This document shows, one piece after another, positions 19,095-34,882 of a stretch of 64,000 nucleotides of DNA. Both the position numbers and the translations under genes were made by a program. The stretch lies in assembly GCF_988243305.1 (NCBI RefSeq), contig NZ_OZ547136.1; one strand, written 5' to 3'. The notes below the pieces were generated by a model. It was not told where the DNA came from and searched no databases. It was given only the letters and a program-made list of their open reading frames with translations. Numbering within the stretch: the first letter of the stretch is position 1; the number at the start of each line of letters is the position of its first letter.

Positions 19095-20633
19095 TTATTC
19101 AGTCGGCAGTGCTACGCGCCAGGGGAGCAGTTCGCCGACCCGGTTTATCGGCCAGTCGGCTATGACGTCAAGGACATAGCGGAGGTAGCTTTCTGGCTCC
19201 ACTCCGTTCAGTTTGCACGTCCCGATCAGGCTGTACAGCAGCGCTCCCCGCTCTCCTCCATGATCCGAACCGAAGAACAGGTAGTTTTTGCGGCCCAGAC
19301 TGACCATCCGCAACGCATTTTCAGCGATGTTATTGTCCGCCTCAGCCCAGCCATCATCTGCATAGTACGTCAGCGCCGGCCACTGGTTCAGGGCGTATGC
19401 GAACGCTTTCGCCAGTTCTGAGTGTCGCGACAGGGTTTTCATCTTTTCACGCAGCCAGCTTTCCAGGGATTTCAGCAGCGGTTTCGTTTTCAACTGACGT
19501 TCGGCAAGGCGCTGTTCCGCCGTCATTCCCCTTATCTCTGCCTCGATGGCGTACAGTTCGCCGATCCGTTTCAGCGCTTCCTCCGTCAGGGCTGACGGGG
19601 TGCGAACGTGCACATCGTGGATTTTACGGCGGGCGTGAGCCCAACAGGCGGCTTCCGTTATCCGGCCATCCCGGTACAGCTCGTTGAACCCGGCGTATGC
19701 ATCCGCCTGCAGTACACCACTGAACCCCGCAAGATGGGTCTGCGGATGGATGCCTTTTCTGTCCGGGCTGTAAGCGAACCACACCGCCGGCGCCAGCGTT
19801 GACCCGGCGTTACGGTCGTCACGAACATACGCCCACAACCGCTCGGTCTTCGTTTTCTTATTGCCTGGCAACAGCACCGGGACAGGCGTGTCATCAACAT
19901 GGAGCTTACCGTCAGTCAGCACATAGCCATGAAGCGCCTCTTCCAGCGGAGACAGCTGCCGGCAGCATGCATCCACCCAGCCCGACAGCAGTGAACGGCT
20001 CAGCTCCACACCTTGCCGGCCGTATATTTCTGACTGGCGATACAGCGGGGTGTGCTCTGCATACTTCGAGGTCAGCACGCGGGCCAGCAGCCCCGGTCCG
20101 GCGATACCCCGCTCGATGGGCCGCGAAGGTGCAGGTGCCTGCACGATGGCATCGCACTGAGTACAGGCATGTTTTTCCCGTACCGTCCGGATAACCCGGA
20201 AGGCGCTACGCATCAACTCCAGCTGTTCGGCGATATCCTCGCCCAGATAGCTCAGTGAACCGCCGCAGTTCGGGCAGCACGGCGCCGCAGGCAACAGTCG
20301 CTTTTCGTCACGGGGTAGTGATTCAGGGAACGGCTTACGGGTGCGGGTCTGACGCAACGGACGCTGTACTGCCGGGTCATACACCCTACCAGTCAGCGTA
20401 TCGCTCTCTTTCTGAAGCCGGTTCAGATCGGCTTCCATTTGTGCGATACGGCGGGAGACTTTTTCGGAACGACTGCCGAAGTTCATCCGGCGGAGTTTAT
20501 CCAGCTGCGCCTGCAGATGGTCTATTTCGCGCTCCCGGTTGCTCAGCTTTTCCTGCAGGGCGTGGATCAGCGCTTCCTGTTCGGCCAGGCGCTGTTTCAG
20601 CAGGAAAATGTCGTCAGAAGAGATGTCGTTCAT
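19095..20633 (-). CDS. IS66-family transposase TnpC (complete, about 512 aa)
   Basis: Full-length TnpC with CPNCGG zinc motif; start taken at MNDISSDD. Confidence 0.9.
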
Positions 20634-21730
20634 ACATCGTGTATTTTTCGCCGGGCATGGACCCAGCACGCAACTTCTGTCTGTGCACCACCTTCACGTT
20701 TGGCACTGAACAGCCGATCGTAACCGCTGAATGCATCCGCCTGCAGGATACCCCGGAAGGGACGAAGGTGTTGTACCGGATGTTTTCCCTGCCTGTCTGG
20801 TGAGTAGGCGAACCAGACCGCCGGTGGCTCTGATGAGCCCGCATTCCGGTCATCCCGGACATACGTCCAGATGCGTCCTGTTTTTGCCTTTTTTCTGCCC
20901 GGTGTCAGCACTTTTACCGGTGTGTCGTCAGTGTGAACCTTGCGGGTGTTCATCACGTAACGGTACAGGGCATCATTCAGCGGAGTCATTAACTGGCAGC
21001 ACGCGTCAACCCAGTTGGAGATTAATGCACGGCTCAGTTCGGCACCCTGTCGGGCAAAGATTTCACTCTGACGATACAGTGGCAGGTGTTCGCAGTATTT
21101 TCCCGTTAACACGCGGGCAAGTAATCCGGAGCCCGCGATGCCGCGCGCTATCGGGCGGGACGGCGCTGGCGCTTCAACTATACAGTCACATTTTGTACAG
21201 GCTTTTTTTACCCGAACAGTGCGGATCACTTTCAGGGCGCTACTCACCAGTTCCAGCTGCTCAGCACTGACTTCACCCAGATAATCCAGCTCACTGCCAC
21301 ACTCCGGGCAACAACTTTCTTCAGGCTCCAGGCGGTGTATTTCACGGGGAAGATGTGCTGGTAACGGACGACGATGACGTGACTGTCGCAACTGGCGGGG
21401 AACCTGCGGGTCATCCTCACGCCCACTGTAACGATCGCTTTCCTGTTCGCGTTGTTTCAGTTGGGCCTCAGCCTGTTCAACCTCACGCTGCAGTTTTTCA
21501 GAACGGGTACCGAACAGCATCCGGCGCAGTTTTTCTATCTGGGCCCTCAGATATTCTATTTCCCGCTCCTCCTCTTCGATCTTTTCTTCGGCACGTGCCA
21601 GTGCAGAGCGCAGGAAGGCCTCCGTCTCTTCAACCAGACTCAGTTGCAGATCTCTCTGACGGAGGGCTTCAGCCTGCTCAGAGAGCAGCCTTTCCAGCTC
21701 AGTGATACGAATGAGGTATTTCCGACTCAT
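20630..21730 (-). pseudogene. IS66-family transposase TnpC, C-terminally truncated (N-terminal 366 aa of a different copy)
   Basis: Ends at …[12 protein letters not shown], the point homologous to the middle of the complete TnpC; its stop overlaps the next start. Confidence 0.8.
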
Positions 21731-21760
21731 GACCGTTTTTATAATCCGGCCATGACATTT

Positions 21761-22111
21761 TTACAACATTGTCAGTGCGTTAAGACGGGATGTTTTTGGC
21801 TGACGCCAGTCCAGCTTATCGAGGAGCATTGCCAGCTGCGAGCGGGTAATGGATACCTTACCGTCACGCACCGCAGGCCAGATAAACAGGCCTTCCTCCA
21901 GGCGTTTGGTGAACAGGCACAGACCATCAGCATCAGCCCAGAGGATTTTAATCATGTCACTCCGTCGGCCACGGAAGATGAACAGGTGACCGGAGAAGGG
22001 GTTCTCATCCAGCACATGTTGTACCTGTTCCCCCAGACCGTTGAAGGATTTACGCATATCAGTAACGCCGGCAACCAGCGAGATTCGAGTGTCTGATGGG
22101 AGCGAGATCAT
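21761..22111 (-). CDS. IS66-family TnpB (Orf2)
   Basis: 116-aa IS66 Orf2-like protein overlapping tnpA. Confidence 0.85.
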   Translation of the reverse strand: MISLPSDTRISLVAGVTDMRKSFNGLGEQVQHVLDENPFSGHLFIFRGRRSDMIKILWADADGLCLFTKRLEEGLFIWPAVRDGKVSITRSQLAMLLDKLDWRQPKTSRLNALTML

Positions 22112-22533
22112 CGCCCCCTCCCGGTCAGTTCACGGATCAACACCGTGAGCAGCTCTGGTGAAGGATTTTCCAGCGTCATGTTACCGTGGCGGAACTCAAC
22201 TTTACAGGAACTGGCACTGACTGTGCTTTGTGAAGGAGTGGATAAAAGCGGAGTAAGAGCCGCCATAGGCTCTTTCTGCTCATCAGGCGTTATCTCAACA
22301 GGTAATAATTCAACGCCAGCGTCAGAAGAGGTTGTTACCGGAAGACGCCGCGATATACGCCCTTCGTTCTGCCAGAGCCTGAGCCATTTGAACAGGAGGT
22401 TATCATTGATATCGTGTTCCCTGGCAATACGGGCAACAGAGGCTCCTGGTTGCAAAGCCAGTTTAACCATTTGAAGTTTAAACTCATTTGAAAATGTTCT
22501 GCGGGGTTCTGCGGATAATATTTTCTGTTCCAT
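22108..22533 (-). CDS. IS66-family TnpA (Orf1, HTH)
   Basis: 141-aa IS66 Orf1-like protein. Confidence 0.85.
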   Translation of the reverse strand: MEQKILSAEPRRTFSNEFKLQMVKLALQPGASVARIAREHDINDNLLFKWLRLWQNEGRISRRLPVTTSSDAGVELLPVEITPDEQKEPMAALTPLLSTPSQSTVSASSCKVEFRHGNMTLENPSPELLTVLIRELTGRGR

Positions 22534-23194
22534 AACAGGTGTCCACTAGTTGATGAAAAGGTGGGCACCTACGTTACCAATACTGGCTTAATGGCTACAT
22601 ACGGCGGTCAGTTTACGCTTACCATGTATCTGGCGAGTGAAGCTTTATGTCGTGTTCTGGCGTGTCCTGTGTTAGTTAGAACACGCCATCGATGGTCAGC
22701 AGGTTCATATTGCACCAGAGCGGATACAGCGTGGTGTTATGTCAGGGCTGCGCTGTTTACGTGAACACGTGGCGTATGGCCCCGCTTCCTGGCCGCTGCT
22801 GGGCATGGATCACGGCGCGACAAAGGGGCGACTACCTGGCAGCATGTGTCCAGCCGGTTCACAATCTGGTGAAGGTTCCTTACGCTCATGGGCCATACTG
22901 ATAATTCACCAGGCCATCATTTCCAGAGGAAGACGCCGTTTGCGTAGCGTGACAGTGTCGGACTCTTCAGGGCTGTGGGTAATCAGTTCCGGGGCAAGAT
23001 AGTCGCAGAGGGTTACGCAGAGAATAGTAACTGGACACTGGATCGATCAACCGATCCTTAACTGAGCGGCATGACAGCTTTCTGATGGTTTTTTTTTGAT
23101 AATCTTCACATTGTGCTTCTTTTCTGTTGGATAATCTTTGTACTTGATGGTGTACTAGGTATCCCATTATGCAGTTAAGTGAAGGTGATTAAAA

Positions 23195-24112
23195 ATGCAA
23201 TGTGAATTTAAAGGGGTCATATCAGCATTACCCACTCCTTATGACCAATCCCAGCAAACCGATATGGAGAGTCTTCGAAAACTGATCCGTTTTAATATCG
23301 AACAAAATATTAAGGGATTGTATGTTGGAGGCTCTACTGGAGAAGCATTTCTTCAGAATGTTGCAGAGCGAGAAAAAATTCTTGAAACAGTAGCCGATGA
23401 ATCAGATGGAAGACTGACACTTATAGCGCATGTGGGCGGAATCAGTACGGCAGAAAGCGAGGTACTTGCAAAAGCTGCAAAAAAATACGGATATCATGCT
23501 ATATCTGCTGTTACTCCATTTTATTATCCTTTTTCATTTGAAGAGCATTGTATCCATTACAGGAAGATTATTGATTCTGCAGATGGACTTCCGATGGTAG
23601 TTTATAATATACCGGCTCTTAGCGGAGTGCGTTTTTCTTTAGATCAGATAAATGAGCTTGTCACAATACCCAGGGTTTGTGCATTAAAACAGACATCCGG
23701 TGATTTATTCCAGATGGAACAAATCAAAAGGAATCATCCAGAGCTTGTGTTATATAATGGTTACGATGAAATATTTGCATCAGGGTTAATTGCAGGTGCA
23801 GATGGGGGAATCGGTAGTACATATAATATAATGGGGTGGCGTTATCTTGAAATATTTGAAGCAGTCAAAAACAATGATGTGATTAAGGCGAAGGAAATGC
23901 AAGTAGCCTGTAACCAGGTTATTGACACTCTTATTCAGAGTGGTGTCCTGGCAGGTATAAAAACTCTTCTTTACTATATGGGGATTATAAATACTCCTGT
24001 ATGCAGAAGTCCTTTTTCTCCGGTAAAGGAAAAGAATCTGGATGTATTATCAAAACTTGCAGAGCGACTGTTCGAAGAACATGACAGAAACAAAAAAATG
24101 AAAATAATCTGA
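23195..24112 (+). CDS. nanA: N-acetylneuraminate lyase (NanA paralog)
   Basis: High similarity to E. coli NanA across the full length (…[12 protein letters not shown]…[14 protein letters not shown]…). Confidence 0.9.
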
Positions 24113-24145: not shown

Positions 24146-25021
24146 ATGATAACACTGGCTGTTGATATAGGAGGAACGAAAATTTCAGCGGCGTTGATAT
24201 CTGATGACGGTTCATTTTTGCTGAAAAAACAGATATCAACACCTCATGAAAGATGTCCTGACGAAATGACAGGGGCTTTACGTCTACTGGTTTCTGAAAT
24301 GAAGGGAACAGCGGAGCGATTTGCAGTAGCATCAACAGGGATTATTAATAATGGAGTATTGACAGCTCTGAATCCAGACAATCTTGGAGGGCTGAAAGAG
24401 TATCCTCTGAAAAATATAATGGAAGATATAACTGGTTTAAATGGAAGTGTGATAAATGATGCCCAGGCAGCCGCATGGGCAGAATATACAGTTTTGCCGA
24501 AAGAAATTTGTGATATGGTTTTTATAACCGTTTCTACGGGGGTTGGAGGGGGAATTGTAGTTAACAGAAAATTATTAACAGGTGTTTCTGGATTAGCCGG
24601 ACATGTTGGGCATATATTGTCCGGAGTAACGGATACAGAATGTGGATGTGGTCGTCGGGGATGCGTTGAAGCGGTTTCATCTGGTCGGGCCATCATGGGG
24701 GCAGCAAAAAATAAACTTGCAGGATATAGCACCAAATATATTTTTGAATTAGCGAGACAGGGATATAAGGAAGCAGAATTTTTGACAGAGCGTTCTGCCA
24801 GTACTATTGCTGAATTAATAGTAAGTTTAAAATTACTGCTTGATTGTCAGGTTGTTGTTGTCGGAGGAAGTGTTGGACTTGCTGATGGGTATGTTCAGAA
24901 AGTGTCGAAACATCTTTCCATATATTCTGAAATTTGTAATGTAATGCTGTTTCCGGCATATTTCAGAAGTGACTCTGGTCTTATTGGTGCAACTCTTTGG
25001 GACCGGGATTGTATTACTTAA
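24146..25021 (+). CDS. nanK: N-acetylmannosamine kinase (NanK-like, ROK family)
   Basis: ROK motifs, N-terminal DIGGTK, CGCGRRGC zinc site. Confidence 0.85.
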   Translation: MITLAVDIGGTKISAALISDDGSFLLKKQISTPHERCPDEMTGALRLLVSEMKGTAERFAVASTGIINNGVLTALNPDNLGGLKEYPLKNIMEDITGLNGSVINDAQAAAWAEYTVLPKEICDMVFITVSTGVGGGIVVNRKLLTGVSGLAGHVGHILSGVTDTECGCGRRGCVEAVSSGRAIMGAAKNKLAGYSTKYIFELARQGYKEAEFLTERSASTIAELIVSLKLLLDCQVVVVGGSVGLADGYVQKVSKHLSIYSEICNVMLFPAYFRSDSGLIGATLWDRDCIT

Positions 25022-25069
25022 AGTAATACTCCAGTGTATTATAAATCCGCTATTATTGTGAGGTTTAAT

Positions 25070-26536
25070 ATGGACTCCTGTATTCAGAAAAAGCAGGTTT
25101 GGTATAAGCATCTTTCACCCAGACAGTGGAAGATATTCGGTGCGGCATGGACAGGTTATTTACTTGATGGTTTTGATTTCGTTCTGATATCTCTGGTTCT
25201 TACAGAGGTTCAGCATGAATTCGGCTTGACGACAATAGAAGCGGCAAGCCTTATTTCCGCTGCTTTTATTTCTCGATGGTTTGGGGGGCTTGCTATTGGC
25301 GCTTTATCGGACAAGATGGGGCGCAGGATGGCAATGGTTTTAAGTATAGTGCTATTCTCTCTCGGAACCCTTGCCTGTGGTCTGGCTCCTGGATATGCAG
25401 TGATGTTTATTGCTCGCATTGTTATTGGGCTTGGTATGGCAGGTGAATATGGCTCAAGTGTAACATATGTTATCGAAAGCTGGCCTGTTCATCTCAGAAA
25501 CAAGGCAAGTGGTTTTTTAATTTCTGGATTTTCTATTGGGGGAGGTTTAGCTGCACAGGTTTATAGCATTGTAGTACCACTATGGGGCTGGCGTTCTCTT
25601 TTCTTTGTCGGCATGCTTCCAATATTATTTGCTTTTTATCTTCGCAAGAATCTTCCGGAGTCTGATGACTGGCAAAAAAGGCAACAAGAGAATAAACCCG
25701 TCAGAACAATGGTGGATATTCTGTACAGAGAAAAGAATAAATACATAAATATTCTTCTGTCTTGTATTGCATTTGCATGTCTATATGTTTGTTTTTCAGG
25801 CGTCACTGCAAACGCTGCTTTAATCACAGTTATGGCATTGTGCTGTGCGGCTGTTTTTATCAGTTTTATATATCAGGGTATGGGGAAAAGATGGCCAACA
25901 GGCATTATGTTGATGCTTGTGGTTATGTTCTGTTTCCTCTACGGATGGCCACTGCAGGCTTTTCTTCCTACATGGCTTAAGGTTGATATGCAGTATTCAC
26001 CAGAAACTGTTGCTCTCATATTTATGCTGGCAGGTTTTGGCTCTGCAGCTGGAAGTTGTATAGGTGGTTTTATGGGGGACTGGCTTGGAACCCGAAAAGC
26101 ATATGTTATATCACTTCTTATCGGTCAGCTTGTTATTATCCCCGTTTTTCTTGTGGACCGGGACTATGTATGGTTACTTGGCCTTCTAATCTTTACTCAG
26201 CAGGTTTTTGGTCAGGGGATTGGTGCTCTGGTGCCGAAAATAATCAGTGGTTATTTTAATGTGGAGCAGCGTGCGGCAGGACTGGGGTTTATTTATAATG
26301 TAGGTTCACTTGGTGGAGCATGTGCGCCTATTCTTGGTGCAGTTGTTGCGTCTCATACAAGTCTTGGTACAGCAATGTGTTCTCTTGCTTTTATCTTAAC
26401 ATTTGTTGTTCTTGTCCTTATTGGTTTTGATATGCCATCACGTGTACAGAGATGGATCCATCCAGAAGCTGCGCTTGAATATGATACTGTCGATGGAAAA
26501 CCTTTTTATGGAGCAAGAAAAAAGAATGTTGCATAA
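25070..26536 (+). CDS. nanT: Sialic acid MFS transporter (NanT paralog)
   Basis: Strong similarity to NanT throughout (…[12 protein letters not shown]…GEYGSS…TYVIESWP…). Confidence 0.9.
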
Positions 26537-26545
26537 GAATAACGG

Positions 26546-27376
26546 ATGCTATCAGGGAATAAAAAAATGATTCATTACAGGGAGAATATATATTCTCTTG
26601 ATAATTATGAGCGTTATATAACTGACAGTTCGCTATTTGAGAATACTGGCGATGGCATAATATATACAGGTATTGTGCCCCTTATTACAGTTGTTGAGCC
26701 TGTTGTATCTAATCAACATAGTGTGCTGATTATACCTGGAGGTGGATACAGGAGGATTGTTTATGAAAGAGAGGGACTTGATGTTGGCAGATGGATAGCA
26801 GGTCAGGGATATACGGCATTTATTCTTTCTTACAGAATGCCCTCCGTTAATGGTTATTATTCCTTTGCAGATGCGAAGAATGCCCTGAACTTTATTTCTT
26901 ACTGGGCCGGAATGTCGGAGAGAACATTTAAGAGTGTTGGATGTATGGGGTTTTCGGCAGGTGGTCATCTTGCTGGATATATTACTCATCTCCATTATGA
27001 GGAAGAGACTTCTGTGCGTCCTGACTGGATGGCTCTGATATATCCAGTTATATCTCTTGACAGGAGTATTGCTCATCAGGGATGCCGGAAACGTCTTCTG
27101 GATGCAGGTGAAAGTGAATATTCAGCCAGTCTTGAAAATAGTGTTACAGAGTATATGCCACCAGTCTTTATTGTGCATGCAACAGATGATAAGGATGTTC
27201 CAGTTATTCATTCTCTGAGATATTTTAACTCTATTCGGGATAAGGGACATCATGCAGAAGCTCATTTTTTTGATAAGGGAGGTCATGGATTTGGTGTATC
27301 CGGAAAAAATGGATATCCGATAGAAAAATGGCAAAGCCTGCTTCTGGAATGGCTTGCGGAACATAAGTTTTATTGA
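26546..27376 (+). CDS. Alpha/beta-hydrolase esterase (putative sialate O-acetylesterase), copy 1
   Basis: GFSAGG (GxSxG) and HGF motifs; nan-cluster context; start may be the internal Met at 26567. Confidence 0.65.
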   Translation: MLSGNKKMIHYRENIYSLDNYERYITDSSLFENTGDGIIYTGIVPLITVVEPVVSNQHSVLIIPGGGYRRIVYEREGLDVGRWIAGQGYTAFILSYRMPSVNGYYSFADAKNALNFISYWAGMSERTFKSVGCMGFSAGGHLAGYITHLHYEEETSVRPDWMALIYPVISLDRSIAHQGCRKRLLDAGESEYSASLENSVTEYMPPVFIVHATDDKDVPVIHSLRYFNSIRDKGHHAEAHFFDKGGHGFGVSGKNGYPIEKWQSLLLEWLAEHKFY

Positions 27377-27421
27377 GAAATCAAATTACAAGTGATAAAT
27401 ATATTTAATGATGAGGCATTT

Positions 27422-28132
27422 ATGAAAAAATATTATCCACTATTAACTGTAATTCTTCTTGGTTTACCTTTGTGCTCTCAGGCATTAACTCTTAATCTAC
27501 GTGGGGGATACAGAAGCGCCAGTCACGCTTATGAAACGTTGATTCAGGTTAGTCAGGGGTGGAATAATGGTTGGTGGGCAAGTTTTGAGTCAAACACCTG
27601 GAATACAATTCACAACAATGAAAATGAATTGTTTGCACTCAATTATAATAAAATAGATATAAATAAAACATATAAAATAGATGACAAATGGGCTCTAATC
27701 CCAGGGATTCAGACACAATGGATGTCAGCAGGAAGTCAGTATAACCCTTATCTGAAAATTTCGTATCAGGCAACGCCAGATCTTAATCTGGCCTTACGCT
27801 ATCGCTATGACTGGAAAGCTTTCCGACAGACGGATTTAGATGGCAACAGGGCGCGTAATGATCAGCATCAGTTTGATGGTTATGTGACATACAAAATTAA
27901 TGATTCATGGTTGTTTGCATGGCAGACCACGGTATATACGAAGGTTAATAATTTCAAATATGGGAATCATAAAAAAACAGCAACTGAAAATGCATTTGTT
28001 CTGCAATATAAAATGTCACCGGTGTTCACCCCATATATAGAATATGATTACTTGGATAAACAAGGGGTGTATAAGGGGAAAGATAATAAACATGAAAATA
28101 GTTACCGTGTCGGTGTTCTGATTAATTTTTAA
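27422..28132 (+). CDS. KdgM/NanC-family outer-membrane porin
   Basis: Signal peptide MKKYYPLLTVILLGLPLCSQA, Tyr-rich beta-barrel ending in F. Confidence 0.75.
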   Translation: MKKYYPLLTVILLGLPLCSQALTLNLRGGYRSASHAYETLIQVSQGWNNGWWASFESNTWNTIHNNENELFALNYNKIDINKTYKIDDKWALIPGIQTQWMSAGSQYNPYLKISYQATPDLNLALRYRYDWKAFRQTDLDGNRARNDQHQFDGYVTYKINDSWLFAWQTTVYTKVNNFKYGNHKKTATENAFVLQYKMSPVFTPYIEYDYLDKQGVYKGKDNKHENSYRVGVLINF

Positions 28133-28144
28133 AAGGTGATTACA

Positions 28145-29254
28145 ATGAAAGTGAAAAACTTTATATATCTTCCCTTCTGCTTGTTTATTGGAACGTCGGT
28201 AGCCGGAGCTTTACCGGAAATTCCTGAACCATTTAAATATGGTGTAGGAGGGATCGAGAATGGTAAAATATATATAGGACTGGGAAGTCTGGGAAATAAC
28301 TGGTATATGATAGATACAAACCAGAGTGAAAAAAAATGGACTAAGATAGCGCAATGGCCGACAGTTCCCAGAGAGCAGGCAACAGCTACTATTATTGATG
28401 GTAAGATCTATGTATTTGGAGGAATTGGAAAAGATAAAAGTGGAGTCATAACCTTACAAAAAGATGTCTATTCCTATGATATTGCTAAAGATAAATGGGA
28501 AAAATTGATGACCCGTCCCCCTGTATCTCTTGCCGGTCATGTTTCTTTTATCCATAATGGTCATGCGGTATCTACTGGTGGTGTAAATGAGAATATTTTT
28601 AATGGATACTTTTCAGATGTCGAGTTATCAAAAGGGAATTCCGCGCTGACAGAGAAAGTCAACAGGGATTATTTTAGTAAACCTGCTGATGATTATTTTT
28701 TAAATAATCATATAATTTCTTATGACCCGTCAAAAAACCAGTGGAAGAACCTGGGAACGACTCCATTTCCGGGAACTGCTGGTTCATCGGTGATTTTTGC
28801 AGAACAGCAAATTTATATACTGGGAGGGGAGAGAAAACCGGGGCTTCGTTCTGTTAGATCCTGGACGGGGGAGCTTTCGCATGATCGAATTAAATGGTTT
28901 GAACTTCCACCAGTAGCTTCACCCGAGGGGGTGTCAGGAGCATATGCCTCTGTTATTGATGGAAATATCTTTCTGGCCGGTGGTGCATATTTCCCGGGGG
29001 CGGCAGAAAAGTATAGCAATGGTGAATACTGGTCTCATAAAGGACTGGATAAAGCCTATTCAAAAGAGATATATCAGCTAATAAAAAATGACTGGAAAAA
29101 AGTTGGTTCTTTGCCGGAAGGACTTGCTTATGGTGTAAGCCTGCCCTGGCAGGGGGGGATGCTCATTCTGGGGGGGGAGAAAAAAGATGGTAAAGCTGTT
29201 TCAGATGTTATTTATCTGAAAAAAAATGACAAACAAATAAAGATTGTTAAATAA
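28145..29254 (+). CDS. nanM: N-acetylneuraminate mutarotase (NanM/YjhT-like, Kelch repeats)
   Basis: Signal peptide plus repeated Kelch-type (IYV/I F GG) blades. Confidence 0.8.
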   Translation: MKVKNFIYLPFCLFIGTSVAGALPEIPEPFKYGVGGIENGKIYIGLGSLGNNWYMIDTNQSEKKWTKIAQWPTVPREQATATIIDGKIYVFGGIGKDKSGVITLQKDVYSYDIAKDKWEKLMTRPPVSLAGHVSFIHNGHAVSTGGVNENIFNGYFSDVELSKGNSALTEKVNRDYFSKPADDYFLNNHIISYDPSKNQWKNLGTTPFPGTAGSSVIFAEQQIYILGGERKPGLRSVRSWTGELSHDRIKWFELPPVASPEGVSGAYASVIDGNIFLAGGAYFPGAAEKYSNGEYWSHKGLDKAYSKEIYQLIKNDWKKVGSLPEGLAYGVSLPWQGGMLILGGEKKDGKAVSDVIYLKKNDKQIKIVK

Positions 29255-29315
29255 CTGTAATGCAGGTGACTGTATTAGTTGTTCAGTCACCTGAGTTATT
29301 TTAATGGGGTTTATA

Positions 29316-30239
29316 ATGAATAAAGATAGATCTTTAAATGAAATGATGTTAAGCTTGTTTAATAAATCAACTATTGTTGACTTGTCAAGTGAGACAATAT
29401 CTGAGAGTAAATCTCTTTCAGGCCGTATTTATCAGGATCCTGAACATAACGGGGAATTTGAACTTGATCGTGTATTGACAGATATTTATGCTCCTCAGTT
29501 AATTATTTTTTTACCAGATAAACCAAATGGAACAGGAATATTGATTATTCCCGGGGGGGGCTACCAGGCTGTTATGTTAGATAAGGAAGGTACAGCTCTT
29601 GCTCCAGAGTTTTTATCTCAGGGCTATACATTATTTGTTCTTAGTTACAGATTACCATCGCCAGTTGAGGGAGAAAATATAAACAAAACTTTTATTGATG
29701 CAATATCTGCAATGCTTTATATTCGTAAGAATGCTGATAAATGGCATCTACAGCGTCATCGTATTGGTGTATTAGGATTTTCTGCTGGGGGGCATATCGC
29801 CTCAACGTTTGTGAATCAGATTTGTGATTTCAAACGTTCTTCTGACAGTAAAGAACAAGAGATTTTCGCTATTCCCGATTTTGTCGGGTTAATTTATCCT
29901 GTAATATCAATGAAAGATGATGTGACACATCCAGGCTCCAGGAAGCAATTACTGGGGGACAATAGTACCTCAGAAAATATAATACAATATAGTGCGGATC
30001 TTAATGTCACATCATGTTTTCCTCCTGTGTTTTTACTCCATTGTTGTGATGATGATCTTGTGTCAATTGAAAACAGTCTGCTCATGTACCGTGGCCTAAT
30101 AGAGAAAGGTGTTTCTGCTGAAATGCATCTCTATGAGAAAGGAGGGCATGGTTTTAGTATTCAGTGGGCCACAGATCTTCCTGTTGGAGGATGGATAAAA
30201 CTGTTTATGGACTGGATGTATTCTCATGGATTTAAATAA
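29316..30239 (+). CDS. Alpha/beta-hydrolase esterase, copy 2
   Basis: Paralog of 26546..27376 with the same GFSAGG and HGF motifs. Confidence 0.65.
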   Translation: MNKDRSLNEMMLSLFNKSTIVDLSSETISESKSLSGRIYQDPEHNGEFELDRVLTDIYAPQLIIFLPDKPNGTGILIIPGGGYQAVMLDKEGTALAPEFLSQGYTLFVLSYRLPSPVEGENINKTFIDAISAMLYIRKNADKWHLQRHRIGVLGFSAGGHIASTFVNQICDFKRSSDSKEQEIFAIPDFVGLIYPVISMKDDVTHPGSRKQLLGDNSTSENIIQYSADLNVTSCFPPVFLLHCCDDDLVSIENSLLMYRGLIEKGVSAEMHLYEKGGHGFSIQWATDLPVGGWIKLFMDWMYSHGFK

Positions 30240-30274: not shown

Positions 30275-31009
30275 CTATGATGCTTCAATTCGTTTATAAA
30301 GGTGATTATACATTAGCTGTTCAGCTTTATCACAATCATGCTCTTTTATGGCCGTAAGTATTTCAATATGCTGCTGATGGGTTTTTTTGTTATTTTCATA
30401 TGTCATTTTATTCTTTTCCAGAGGTTTGGCCATTATCAGCCATTCAGAAAATGCTGAGTGTATTGTTTTTAATACTTTATTGTCAGGTATATCAGCAAGT
30501 ATACTATGAAATTCAATATCATATTGAGCATACACTTCGGGGGTTCTCAGTGAGTTATGATGGATACTGAGCACCTTCTCAAGCCTGTGAATATCCTCAG
30601 GCGTTGCATTTTTTGCTGCATATCTTACAAGGTTGGTTTCAAAAAAGATGCGTAGTCTTTCAAAATCCTTGATGCCATCAGCTGTAGATAAAAAATCTTT
30701 AACAATGCCTGATAACCCATTAATGATGGTTTCTGGTGATGGACGGCAGACACTGGCTTTTTCTCCCTTGTTATACCGGATTAGCCCTTTATGTCTGAGA
30801 GATGATAAAGCCTCTCTGACAGATGGTCTTCCAACGCCAAAGAATGCCATAAGTTCACGTTCAGAAGGCAGGTATTCACCTTCCCTTATCTCCTCCTGGC
30901 GGATCATTCTTTCAAGCTCTTCGGCAACGATTTCTGAAAGTTTTTTTGTAACAATGGGCTTTCTGGTCGTTGTTAGCCCGGGTAACACGGTTTTTTTGTT
31001 GTCGGACAT
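30275..31009 (-). CDS. GntR/FadR-family regulator (NanR-like)
   Basis: …LPSERELMAFFGVGRPSVREAL… and overall colinearity with NanR. Confidence 0.8.
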   Translation of the reverse strand: MSDNKKTVLPGLTTTRKPIVTKKLSEIVAEELERMIRQEEIREGEYLPSERELMAFFGVGRPSVREALSSLRHKGLIRYNKGEKASVCRPSPETIINGLSGIVKDFLSTADGIKDFERLRIFFETNLVRYAAKNATPEDIHRLEKVLSIHHNSLRTPEVYAQYDIEFHSILADIPDNKVLKTIHSAFSEWLIMAKPLEKNKMTYENNKKTHQQHIEILTAIKEHDCDKAEQLMYNHLYKRIEAS

Positions 31010-31105
31010 ATATTGATTTATATGGATTAGAGCAAATGAGTTTTTAATTTAACACTTTCTTTTAATAATGAAAATATTTAATTAAATCTATTATGTAAAG
31101 GGGGA

Positions 31106-32139: not shown

Positions 32140-34882
<2,743 letters not shown>

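Follow-up and report, generated by a model that had tools for sequence, protein, structure and literature searches.

The window, by which we mean the whole 64-kb stretch of DNA that was analysed, contains the sialic acid cluster known as nan-9 (Tiwari 2023, PMC10088187), which is the same gene cluster as the 'nan module' of the ExPEC island GI-pheV (PMC11537424). This region is 99.8% identical to that of Nissle 1917, and 689 of the 5426 complete E. coli genomes have it. Both papers cover the gene content, host association and growth phenotypes of the cluster and neither mentions an operator; in the text of PMC10088187 the word 'operator' is absent and 'promoter' occurs once, in an unrelated sense. 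No description of the nan-9 operator or of its regulation was found in the literature searched, nor was any further, later work on nan-9. Gene calls were taken from the list of open reading frames, from NCBIfam matches and from the RefSeq annotation of the identical Nissle 1917 region, and they give the following arrangement:

22622-23078, minus strand: IS4-family transposase remnant with its terminal inverted repeat, identified by blastn; upstream boundary of the native nan-9 DNA
23195-24112, plus strand: nanA paralogue, N-acetylneuraminate lyase, 305 aa, 66% identical to K-12 NanA
24146-25021, plus strand: ROK kinase, nanK-like
25034-26536, plus strand: sialate MFS transporter (open reading frame)
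26546-27376, plus strand: alpha/beta-hydrolase 1
27392-28132, plus strand: KdgM/NanC-like porin
28136-29254, plus strand: NanM epimerase
29304-30239, plus strand: alpha/beta-hydrolase 2
30275-31009, minus strand: nan-9 NanR paralogue of the GntR/FadR subfamily (wHTH and FCD domains), candidate repressor, from NF003011 and a PDB match

The seven genes between 23195 and 30239 are separated by gaps of 3-49 nt and probably form one operon. The NanR gene converges on them and a SASA-type sialate esterase gene (nanS-like) is divergent from the NanR gene. A stable RNA hairpin (29257-29299; -20 kcal/mol, z = -3.4) followed by UUAUUUU was observed in the 49-nt gap between nanM and hydrolase 2, and it may be an intra-operon attenuator or stability element. 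In the plasmid-type clusters hydrolase 2 is a separate unit with an operator-like palindrome of its own.

The cluster is bordered by mobile DNA on both sides. The IS4 remnant is 80.7% identical by blastn to an IS4-family element of Klebsiella plasmids over 22622-23078, has an internal deletion of about 70 bp, shares the terminus ...CTTAACTGAGCGGCATGACAGC with the Klebsiella copy and ends at about 23074-23078; RefSeq annotates a frameshifted transposase pseudogene at 22622-23078. This remnant is outside the switch. An earlier reading, made from the sequence only, had taken 23040-23194 as the upstream region. Its last 116 bp (23079-23194) are indeed native upstream DNA, but its first 39 bases (23040-23078) belong to the IS4-family terminus. 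At two unrelated loci an IS4-family element was observed just 5' of a NanR-type-regulated promoter and in the same orientation relative to it, with its end 17 bp before the nan-9 CRP-like site described below and about 110 bp before the K-12 nanX operator (L044, 2091-3516), which may be a coincidence or a target preference. Nested IS66-family elements (full tnpC, truncated tnpC, tnpB and tnpA; 19095-22533) adjoin the IS4 remnant upstream and match the reported position of IS682, which 63 of 86 isolates had upstream of nan-9 (PMC10088187). Just downstream of the nanS-like gene there is an open reading frame for a group II intron reverse transcriptase/maturase (32703-34226, minus strand; TIGR04416, 337 bits) where Nissle 1917 has an IS3 element, and therefore the downstream border of the nan module differs between strains.

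Predicted promoter architecture upstream of the nanA paralogue

The motif GGTGTACTAGGTATC (GGTGTA-CTA-GGTATC) is located on the plus strand at 23149-23163, with its end 32 nt and its centre 39 nt 5' of the ATG of the nanA paralogue at 23195, and thus where the sequence-only reading had put it, about 40 bp upstream of the nanA-like start. Its likeness to the GGTATA-repeat operator, noted in that reading, is imperfect. Two hexamers, GGTGTA (23149-23154) and GGTATC (23158-23163), are present with a 3-nt spacer, CTA, but each has one mismatch and an exact GGTATA is absent. A third repeat was not found at 23166-23171, which reads ATTATG (3 of 6 matches) and is unconserved between lineages. The pattern GGTATA-N3-GGTATA with at most two mismatches gave 11 matches in the 64-kb window as compared with 3.07 expected from shuffles, and none of 100 shuffles reached 11; none of the 11 has fewer than one mismatch. 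The bare pattern match is weak and is by itself not above chance, and the excess of matches in the window is probably a codon or composition bias. Three matches at the same threshold were observed within nan-9 coding genes (24425-24439, 28293-28307 and 29510-29524). What makes the match upstream of nanA convincing is its position and conservation rather than the bare pattern.

The K-12 nanA promoter reportedly has three GGTATA repeats as the operator of NanR, with a CRP site upstream, and NanR protects about 30 bp across this promoter. Alignment with it, together with the five nan-9-type sequences compared here (the window and four others, from four lineages), suggests the following elements in the nan-9 upstream region:

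23095-23110, plus strand: CRP-like site TTTGATAATCTTCACA (TTTGA-TAATCT-TCACA), 9 of 10 consensus half-site bases
23128-23133, plus strand: putative -35 element TGGATA, from geometry, 17 bp 5' of the putative -10
23148-23156, plus strand: putative extended -10 element TG-G-TGTACT (hexamer 23151-23156), from alignment with K-12 nanA
23148-23166, plus strand: proposed NanR-family operator TGGTGTAC-TAG-GTATCCCA, from invariance, geometry and dyad symmetry
23166-23171, plus strand: position of the third repeat, ATTATG, from alignment with the canonical operator
23183-23188, plus strand: Shine-Dalgarno sequence AGGTGA, read 6 nt before the ATG

The CRP-like pattern with at most one mismatch occurs only three times in the 64 kb, the site at 23095-23110 among them. 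In all five nan-9-type sequences (T/C)(T/G)TGA-N6-TCACA was observed exactly 38 nt 5' of GGTGTACTAGGTAT. The same order is found at K-12 nanA, where the CRP-like site AGTGAAGCAGATCGCA is followed by 38 nt and the operator GGTATAACAGGTATAAAGGTATA, while K-12 nanX has a similar CRP-like site 39 nt 5' of its operator; CRP-like site and operator are both kept in 27 canonical nanA promoters from other species. Since the offset is that of K-12 nanA, the motif occupies the place of canonical repeats 1-2.

The sequence TGgTGTACT of the window aligns position for position with TGgTATAAC of K-12 nanA. In both families the first hexamer opens with a G that, together with the T preceding it, gives TGn, and a -10-like hexamer follows. 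All nan-9-type sequences keep the TGG of the -35 element, and K-12 nanA has its GG too. The proposed -10, TGTACT, is poor in that it has no A, which is near-universal, at its second position. From the geometry of the 17-bp spacer the start site is predicted at about 23163-23164, which would centre the CRP-like site near -61, as compared with about -61.5 in class I CRP-dependent promoters. A consensus sigma-70 promoter and terminator scan of 22950-23300 called nothing, and for this reason the promoter proposal rests on homology. An Rfam scan of 22900-23400 returned just a meaningless sub-threshold miRNA match and indicated no RNA element.

Relative to the canonical operator, the nan-9 site is a distinct variant. 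The extended sequence GGTATAA(C/T)AGGTATAAAGGT is present in the 27 canonical nanA promoters and in K-12 nanA, nanX and nanC, from which the nan-9 site deviates by A4 to G, by the spacer ACA to CTA and by AAG to CCA after hexamer 2. No nan-9-type sequence departs from the G, the CTA spacer or the C that follows hexamer 2. A parallel for an operator with two repeats is K-12 nanC (nanCMS), which has an effectively two-repeat NanR operator, GGTATAACAGGTATAAAGGTGCA, with a degenerate third repeat GGTGCA, and which controls porin, mutarotase and esterase genes resembling those of nan-9. Unlike nan-9, however, nanC has two perfect first repeats, the same as in nanA, and it belongs to the core genome and is under the control of the core NanR.

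Conservation and symmetry of the site

The nan-9-type sequences are well diverged. They include Proteus faecis (L007), which has the gene order of the window without nanK and a NanR 80% identical to the window NanR, an E. coli variant (L033 and L034; NanR 71% identical) and IncF-plasmid versions (L036, pCEC15, and L037; NanR 76% identical). The NanA proteins of these lineages are 69-70% identical to the window NanA, and the fourfold-degenerate nanA sites are 39-40% identical, which is near saturation. In a gapless alignment of the four lineages, TGGTGTACTAGGTAT (23148-23162) was observed to form 15 consecutive invariant columns; outside it, identity to the window falls to 21-49% in the flanks and the spacer, and just 7 of 84 background columns (8%) are invariant. 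Such a 15-column run has an analytic probability of about 8e-15, which rises to about 2e-6 when a deliberately generous background is assumed. Every nan-9-type sequence has T-GGTGTACTAGGTAT-(C/A)C upstream of nanA, where hexamer 2 ends in C in four of them and in A in Proteus. The invariance of TGGTGTACTAGGTAT despite near-saturated neutral sites points to purifying selection on it. As the motif overlaps the -10 and the predicted start, some of this conservation could be owed to RNA polymerase rather than to a repressor. The promoter was compared in 42 GI-pheV-type copies from metagenomes: about 12 depart from the window sequence (in poly-T length or at 23087, 23115, 23147 or 23171), none of them within 23148-23166. 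These population data are weak evidence and uninformative, because the promoter is almost invariant and overall diversity is low.

Lineages beyond these four were not found in genomes, plasmids, proteins or metagenomes. In the search of genome contigs with NanA, 26 canonical nanA loci and two MAG contigs derived from E. coli came back, and Proteus faecis gave the single useful orthologue; the NanR homologue search returned just four nan-9-type clusters. The esterase-1 homologue search gave no further nan-9 lineage and dropped straight to about 40% identity, to Bacteroidota-type esterases. A scan of metagenomes for TCACA-N38-GGTGTACTAGGTAT brought up no new lineage: 46 matches were of E. coli type, and the one other, L091, in which the nan context is absent, was rejected as a chance match. 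Three more distant matches of the NanR search (L038, L040 and L042) were rejected as nan-9 lineages for their canonical or unrelated contexts. Short direct and inverted repeats in 23000-23260 are unconserved in the other lineages and were treated as chance.

A related sequence, TGGTATACTAGCTATTCAG, was observed on the metagenome contig L038 (2656-2674; NanR-like protein 43% identical), 5' of a cluster of TonB-dependent receptor, SSF transporter, nanE, nanK and nanA genes. It has the GGTrTA-CTAG core of the nan-9 operator, not the canonical ACA spacer, which hints that the CTA-spacer form might be an older or wider operator type.

The site at 23148-23166 is also a 19-bp imperfect dyad, with six of the nine symmetric pairs of TGGTGTAC-TAG-GTATCCCA satisfied, and the Proteus faecis copy, TTGGTGTACTAGGTATACCAA, is a nearly perfect one. 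Where nan-9 and canonical sites differ, it is mostly at the positions to which the dyad is due (C at 8 and CCA at 17-19). In the plasmid-type clusters the motif occurs again, in a more symmetric form, 5' of the separately transcribed esterase-2 gene. This second copy is ATTGGTATGCTTAGTATACCAAT, that is ATTGGTATGC-TTA-GTATACCAAT, in L036 and L037, and the esterase-2 upstream copy of L033 is TGGTATACTAAGCACTCCA, or TGGTATAC-TAA-GCACTCCA. FadR-subfamily GntR regulators such as FadR, PdhR and LldR bind palindromic operators of the TGGT...ACCA type. The outer TGG...CCA dyad of the nan-9 site and the near-perfect esterase-2 palindrome resemble these operators, but TGGT and ACCA are 11 bp apart in nan-9 as compared with about 3 bp. 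The esterase-2 upstream copies seem to fit a dyad somewhat better than a direct repeat, and the window site reads equally well as two direct hexamers or as a palindrome. The five distinct sites do not separate the two readings, which have most positions in common.

Other intergenic regions of the window cluster gave no such site. A second operator was not found in its nanM/esterase-2 gap, and a NanR-type site is absent from the AT-rich divergent region between nanR and the nanS-like gene (31010-31105). This latter region is not alignable with its Proteus counterpart, and the plasmid-type clusters have GATCTTGCCATATATACA in common in their nanR/nanS intergenic regions. In the plasmid-type clusters the esterase-2 upstream site was observed to be inside a longer inverted repeat, CCCCTGTATTGGTAT-GCTTAGT-ATACCAATACAGGGG (L036, 11640-11680; L037, 11634-11674), the right arm of which, ATACCAATACAGGGG, overlaps a GGGGG Shine-Dalgarno sequence. 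This long repeat could have a role in the RNA in addition to one in the DNA.

The NanR paralogue of the cluster

The regulator that the sequence-only reading had picked out at 30275-31009 was recovered as a 244-aa protein of the minus strand with an NCBIfam NF003011 score of 273.1 bits (cut-off 260). Pfam domains PF00392 and PF07729 are present, the protein is 52% identical to K-12 NanR and its best PDB match is NanR (6ON4/6WFQ/6WG7, E = 5e-73). Together with the CRP offset and the invariance across lineages, the co-occurrence of this paralogue appears to bear out the proposed likeness of the motif to the NanR operator.

The alpha2 and alpha3 recognition helices are identical to those of canonical NanR. 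Nine DNA contacts have been proposed for NanR (S33, E58, R59, G68, R69, S71, R73, N89 and E91; Horne et al. 2021, PMC8012715) and eight are kept in nan-9 NanR, the exception being N89, a wing residue with a proposed role in base reading, which is K in all five nan-9-type proteins. These five proteins also have N66G and the wing residues Q86K/R, I87Y, N89K, R92K and R94S, which are absent from the canonical NanRs of 12 species. All four Zn ligands are kept, as are R128, D172, H176 and H244 of the carboxylate-binding site, and this argues for, or is at least compatible with, a sialic-acid ligand. Among the Neu5Ac contacts 8 of 13 are kept, and the replacement of N165, F168, R203, H214 and S218 would leave room for a ligand other than Neu5Ac.

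The N-terminal extension has 24 residues in the window NanR and 13 in that of Proteus faecis as compared with 32 in K-12, so that the window protein is 8 residues shorter there; the acidic distal part is missing in nan-9 NanR. In K-12 NanR this extension mediates the cooperative assembly of three dimers (PMC8012715). The same study found that K-12 NanR needs two repeats only, if correctly spaced, with a KD of 25 nM for a two-repeat oligonucleotide as compared with about 20 nM for three repeats, and the NanR-dimer1/DNA complex has a single-dimer, FadR-like binding mode (PMC8012715). The missing third repeat of nan-9 is therefore compatible with NanR control, as the KD for two repeats is similar and the third repeat of nanC is degenerate. 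Furthermore, operator and regulator types were observed to co-vary: canonical NanR occurs with GGTATA-A(C/T)A-GGTATA-AA-GGT, and nan-9-type NanR with GGTGTA-CTA-GGTAT(C/A)-C.

Proposed control of the nan-9 operon

We consider it probable that the sequence at 23148-23166 is a NanR-family operator placed on the core promoter of the nan-9 operon. CRP-cAMP at 23095-23110, near -61, would activate a nanA promoter consisting of the weak -35 TGGATA and the extended -10 TGgTGTACT, and the operator would extend from about -16 to +3. When sialic acid is lacking, the two hexamers would be occupied by a dimer of the island NanR, possibly also of the core NanR, so that RNA polymerase is kept from the -10 and start region. 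Binding of sialic acid together with Zn2+ in the FCD domain would release the repressor, after which transcription would depend on CRP, i.e. on the absence of glucose. The start site, the binding protein, the number of dimers, the inducing sialic acid and the extent of the operon are the parts of this scheme that we infer. Against the scheme count the imperfect hexamers with their commonly matched pattern, the lack of a third repeat, the poor -10 in a promoter that the consensus scan did not call, the N89K change and shorter extension of the regulator, the lack of a similar site at 31010-31105 and the small number of lineages, four, in the comparison. Without nan-9, growth is about 3 h later on Neu5Ac and impaired on Neu5Gc (PMC10088187), phenotypes that are compatible with the repressor model but not diagnostic of it.

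The nan-9 promoter thus shares with K-12 nanA the CRP-like site 38 nt upstream, the first hexamer over the predicted extended -10, the 3-nt hexamer spacing, a nanA gene downstream and a FadR-subfamily GntR regulator with the same alpha2/alpha3 helices and Zn ligands. It differs in its two one-mismatch hexamers, the CTA spacer, the lack of a third repeat and the dyad symmetry of a site ending in CCA, and its regulator differs in the wing, in N66G and in the length of the extension. It is conceivable, though less likely than not, that these differences reflect an insulated paralogous switch, in which nan-9 NanR would bind the dyad TGGTrTAC-N3-GyATmCCA as a single dimer or non-cooperative pair, with no cross-binding by the core NanR and with a different inducer, such as an O-acetylated form or Neu5Gc. 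If this were true, ExPEC of ST131, ST73 and ST69 would have a second, independent sialic-acid sensing channel.

Control by the core NanR has to be taken as a serious alternative or addition to control by the island protein, because the recognition helices of the two are identical. In its full form, this alternative would have a real site under the main control of the core-genome NanR, with nan-9 as part of the existing sialoregulon and an island NanR that is redundant or acts elsewhere or with a different ligand. Core nanR is present in more than 99% of E. coli (PMC10088187), two correctly spaced repeats suffice for the K-12 protein (PMC8012715) and the hexamer spacing and promoter position equal those of canonical repeats 1-2. 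We think this full form unlikely, as the nan-9 site has fixed differences (A to G in hexamer 1 and ACA to CTA in the spacer) from a canonical operator that is otherwise invariant, the nan-9-type operator is always found with a nan-9-type NanR, also in Proteus faecis and on plasmids, and the two NanR types have consistently different wings.

The remaining explanations do without NanR. The block might be core-promoter sequence only (extended -10, -10, discriminator and start) that is kept for RNA polymerase, its likeness to GGTATA being inherited or incidental. The alignment of TGgTGTACT with TGgTATAAC and the coincidence of the first hexamer with the -10 agree with this, and more distant NanR-linked promoters have TGGTATAAT-like sequences. 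We regard it as improbable, however, as the invariance runs 6 nt past the -10 (AGGTAT) to just before the predicted start, which is rarely conserved in promoters, and the hexamer itself is a poor -10. Moreover, the right half recurs as the palindromic partner GTATACCA at the second gene and a NanR paralogue with intact DNA contacts is encoded in every cluster. It is very improbable that a transcription factor unrelated to NanR, for instance a nucleoid protein or a different sugar regulator, binds the block, given that register and position match the canonical NanR operator, that GGTATA-like hexamers occur with the canonical spacing and that the NanR paralogue accompanies the site in every cluster, different host genera included. 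Matches with up to two mismatches are common in the window, but a chance resemblance without function is effectively refuted by the conservation analysis, with a 15-nt invariant run across lineages saturated at neutral sites and a CRP-like offset that is exact in six promoters.

NanR-family control of the nan-9 promoter remains the reading that we favour, and the operator, undescribed in the literature searched, is yet very likely an ordinary copy of a known sugar-sensing switch. The added interest is modest and lies in a distinct, co-evolved operator/regulator subtype within a clinically prominent accessory cluster. With promoter, CRP site and operator defined, the switching of nan-9 is reduced to a few direct experiments. 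Provided that the two NanRs cross-bind or form mixed dimers, strains that carry both may differ from K-12 in NanR-based sialic-acid biosensors and in the control of fimB and type-1 fimbriae.
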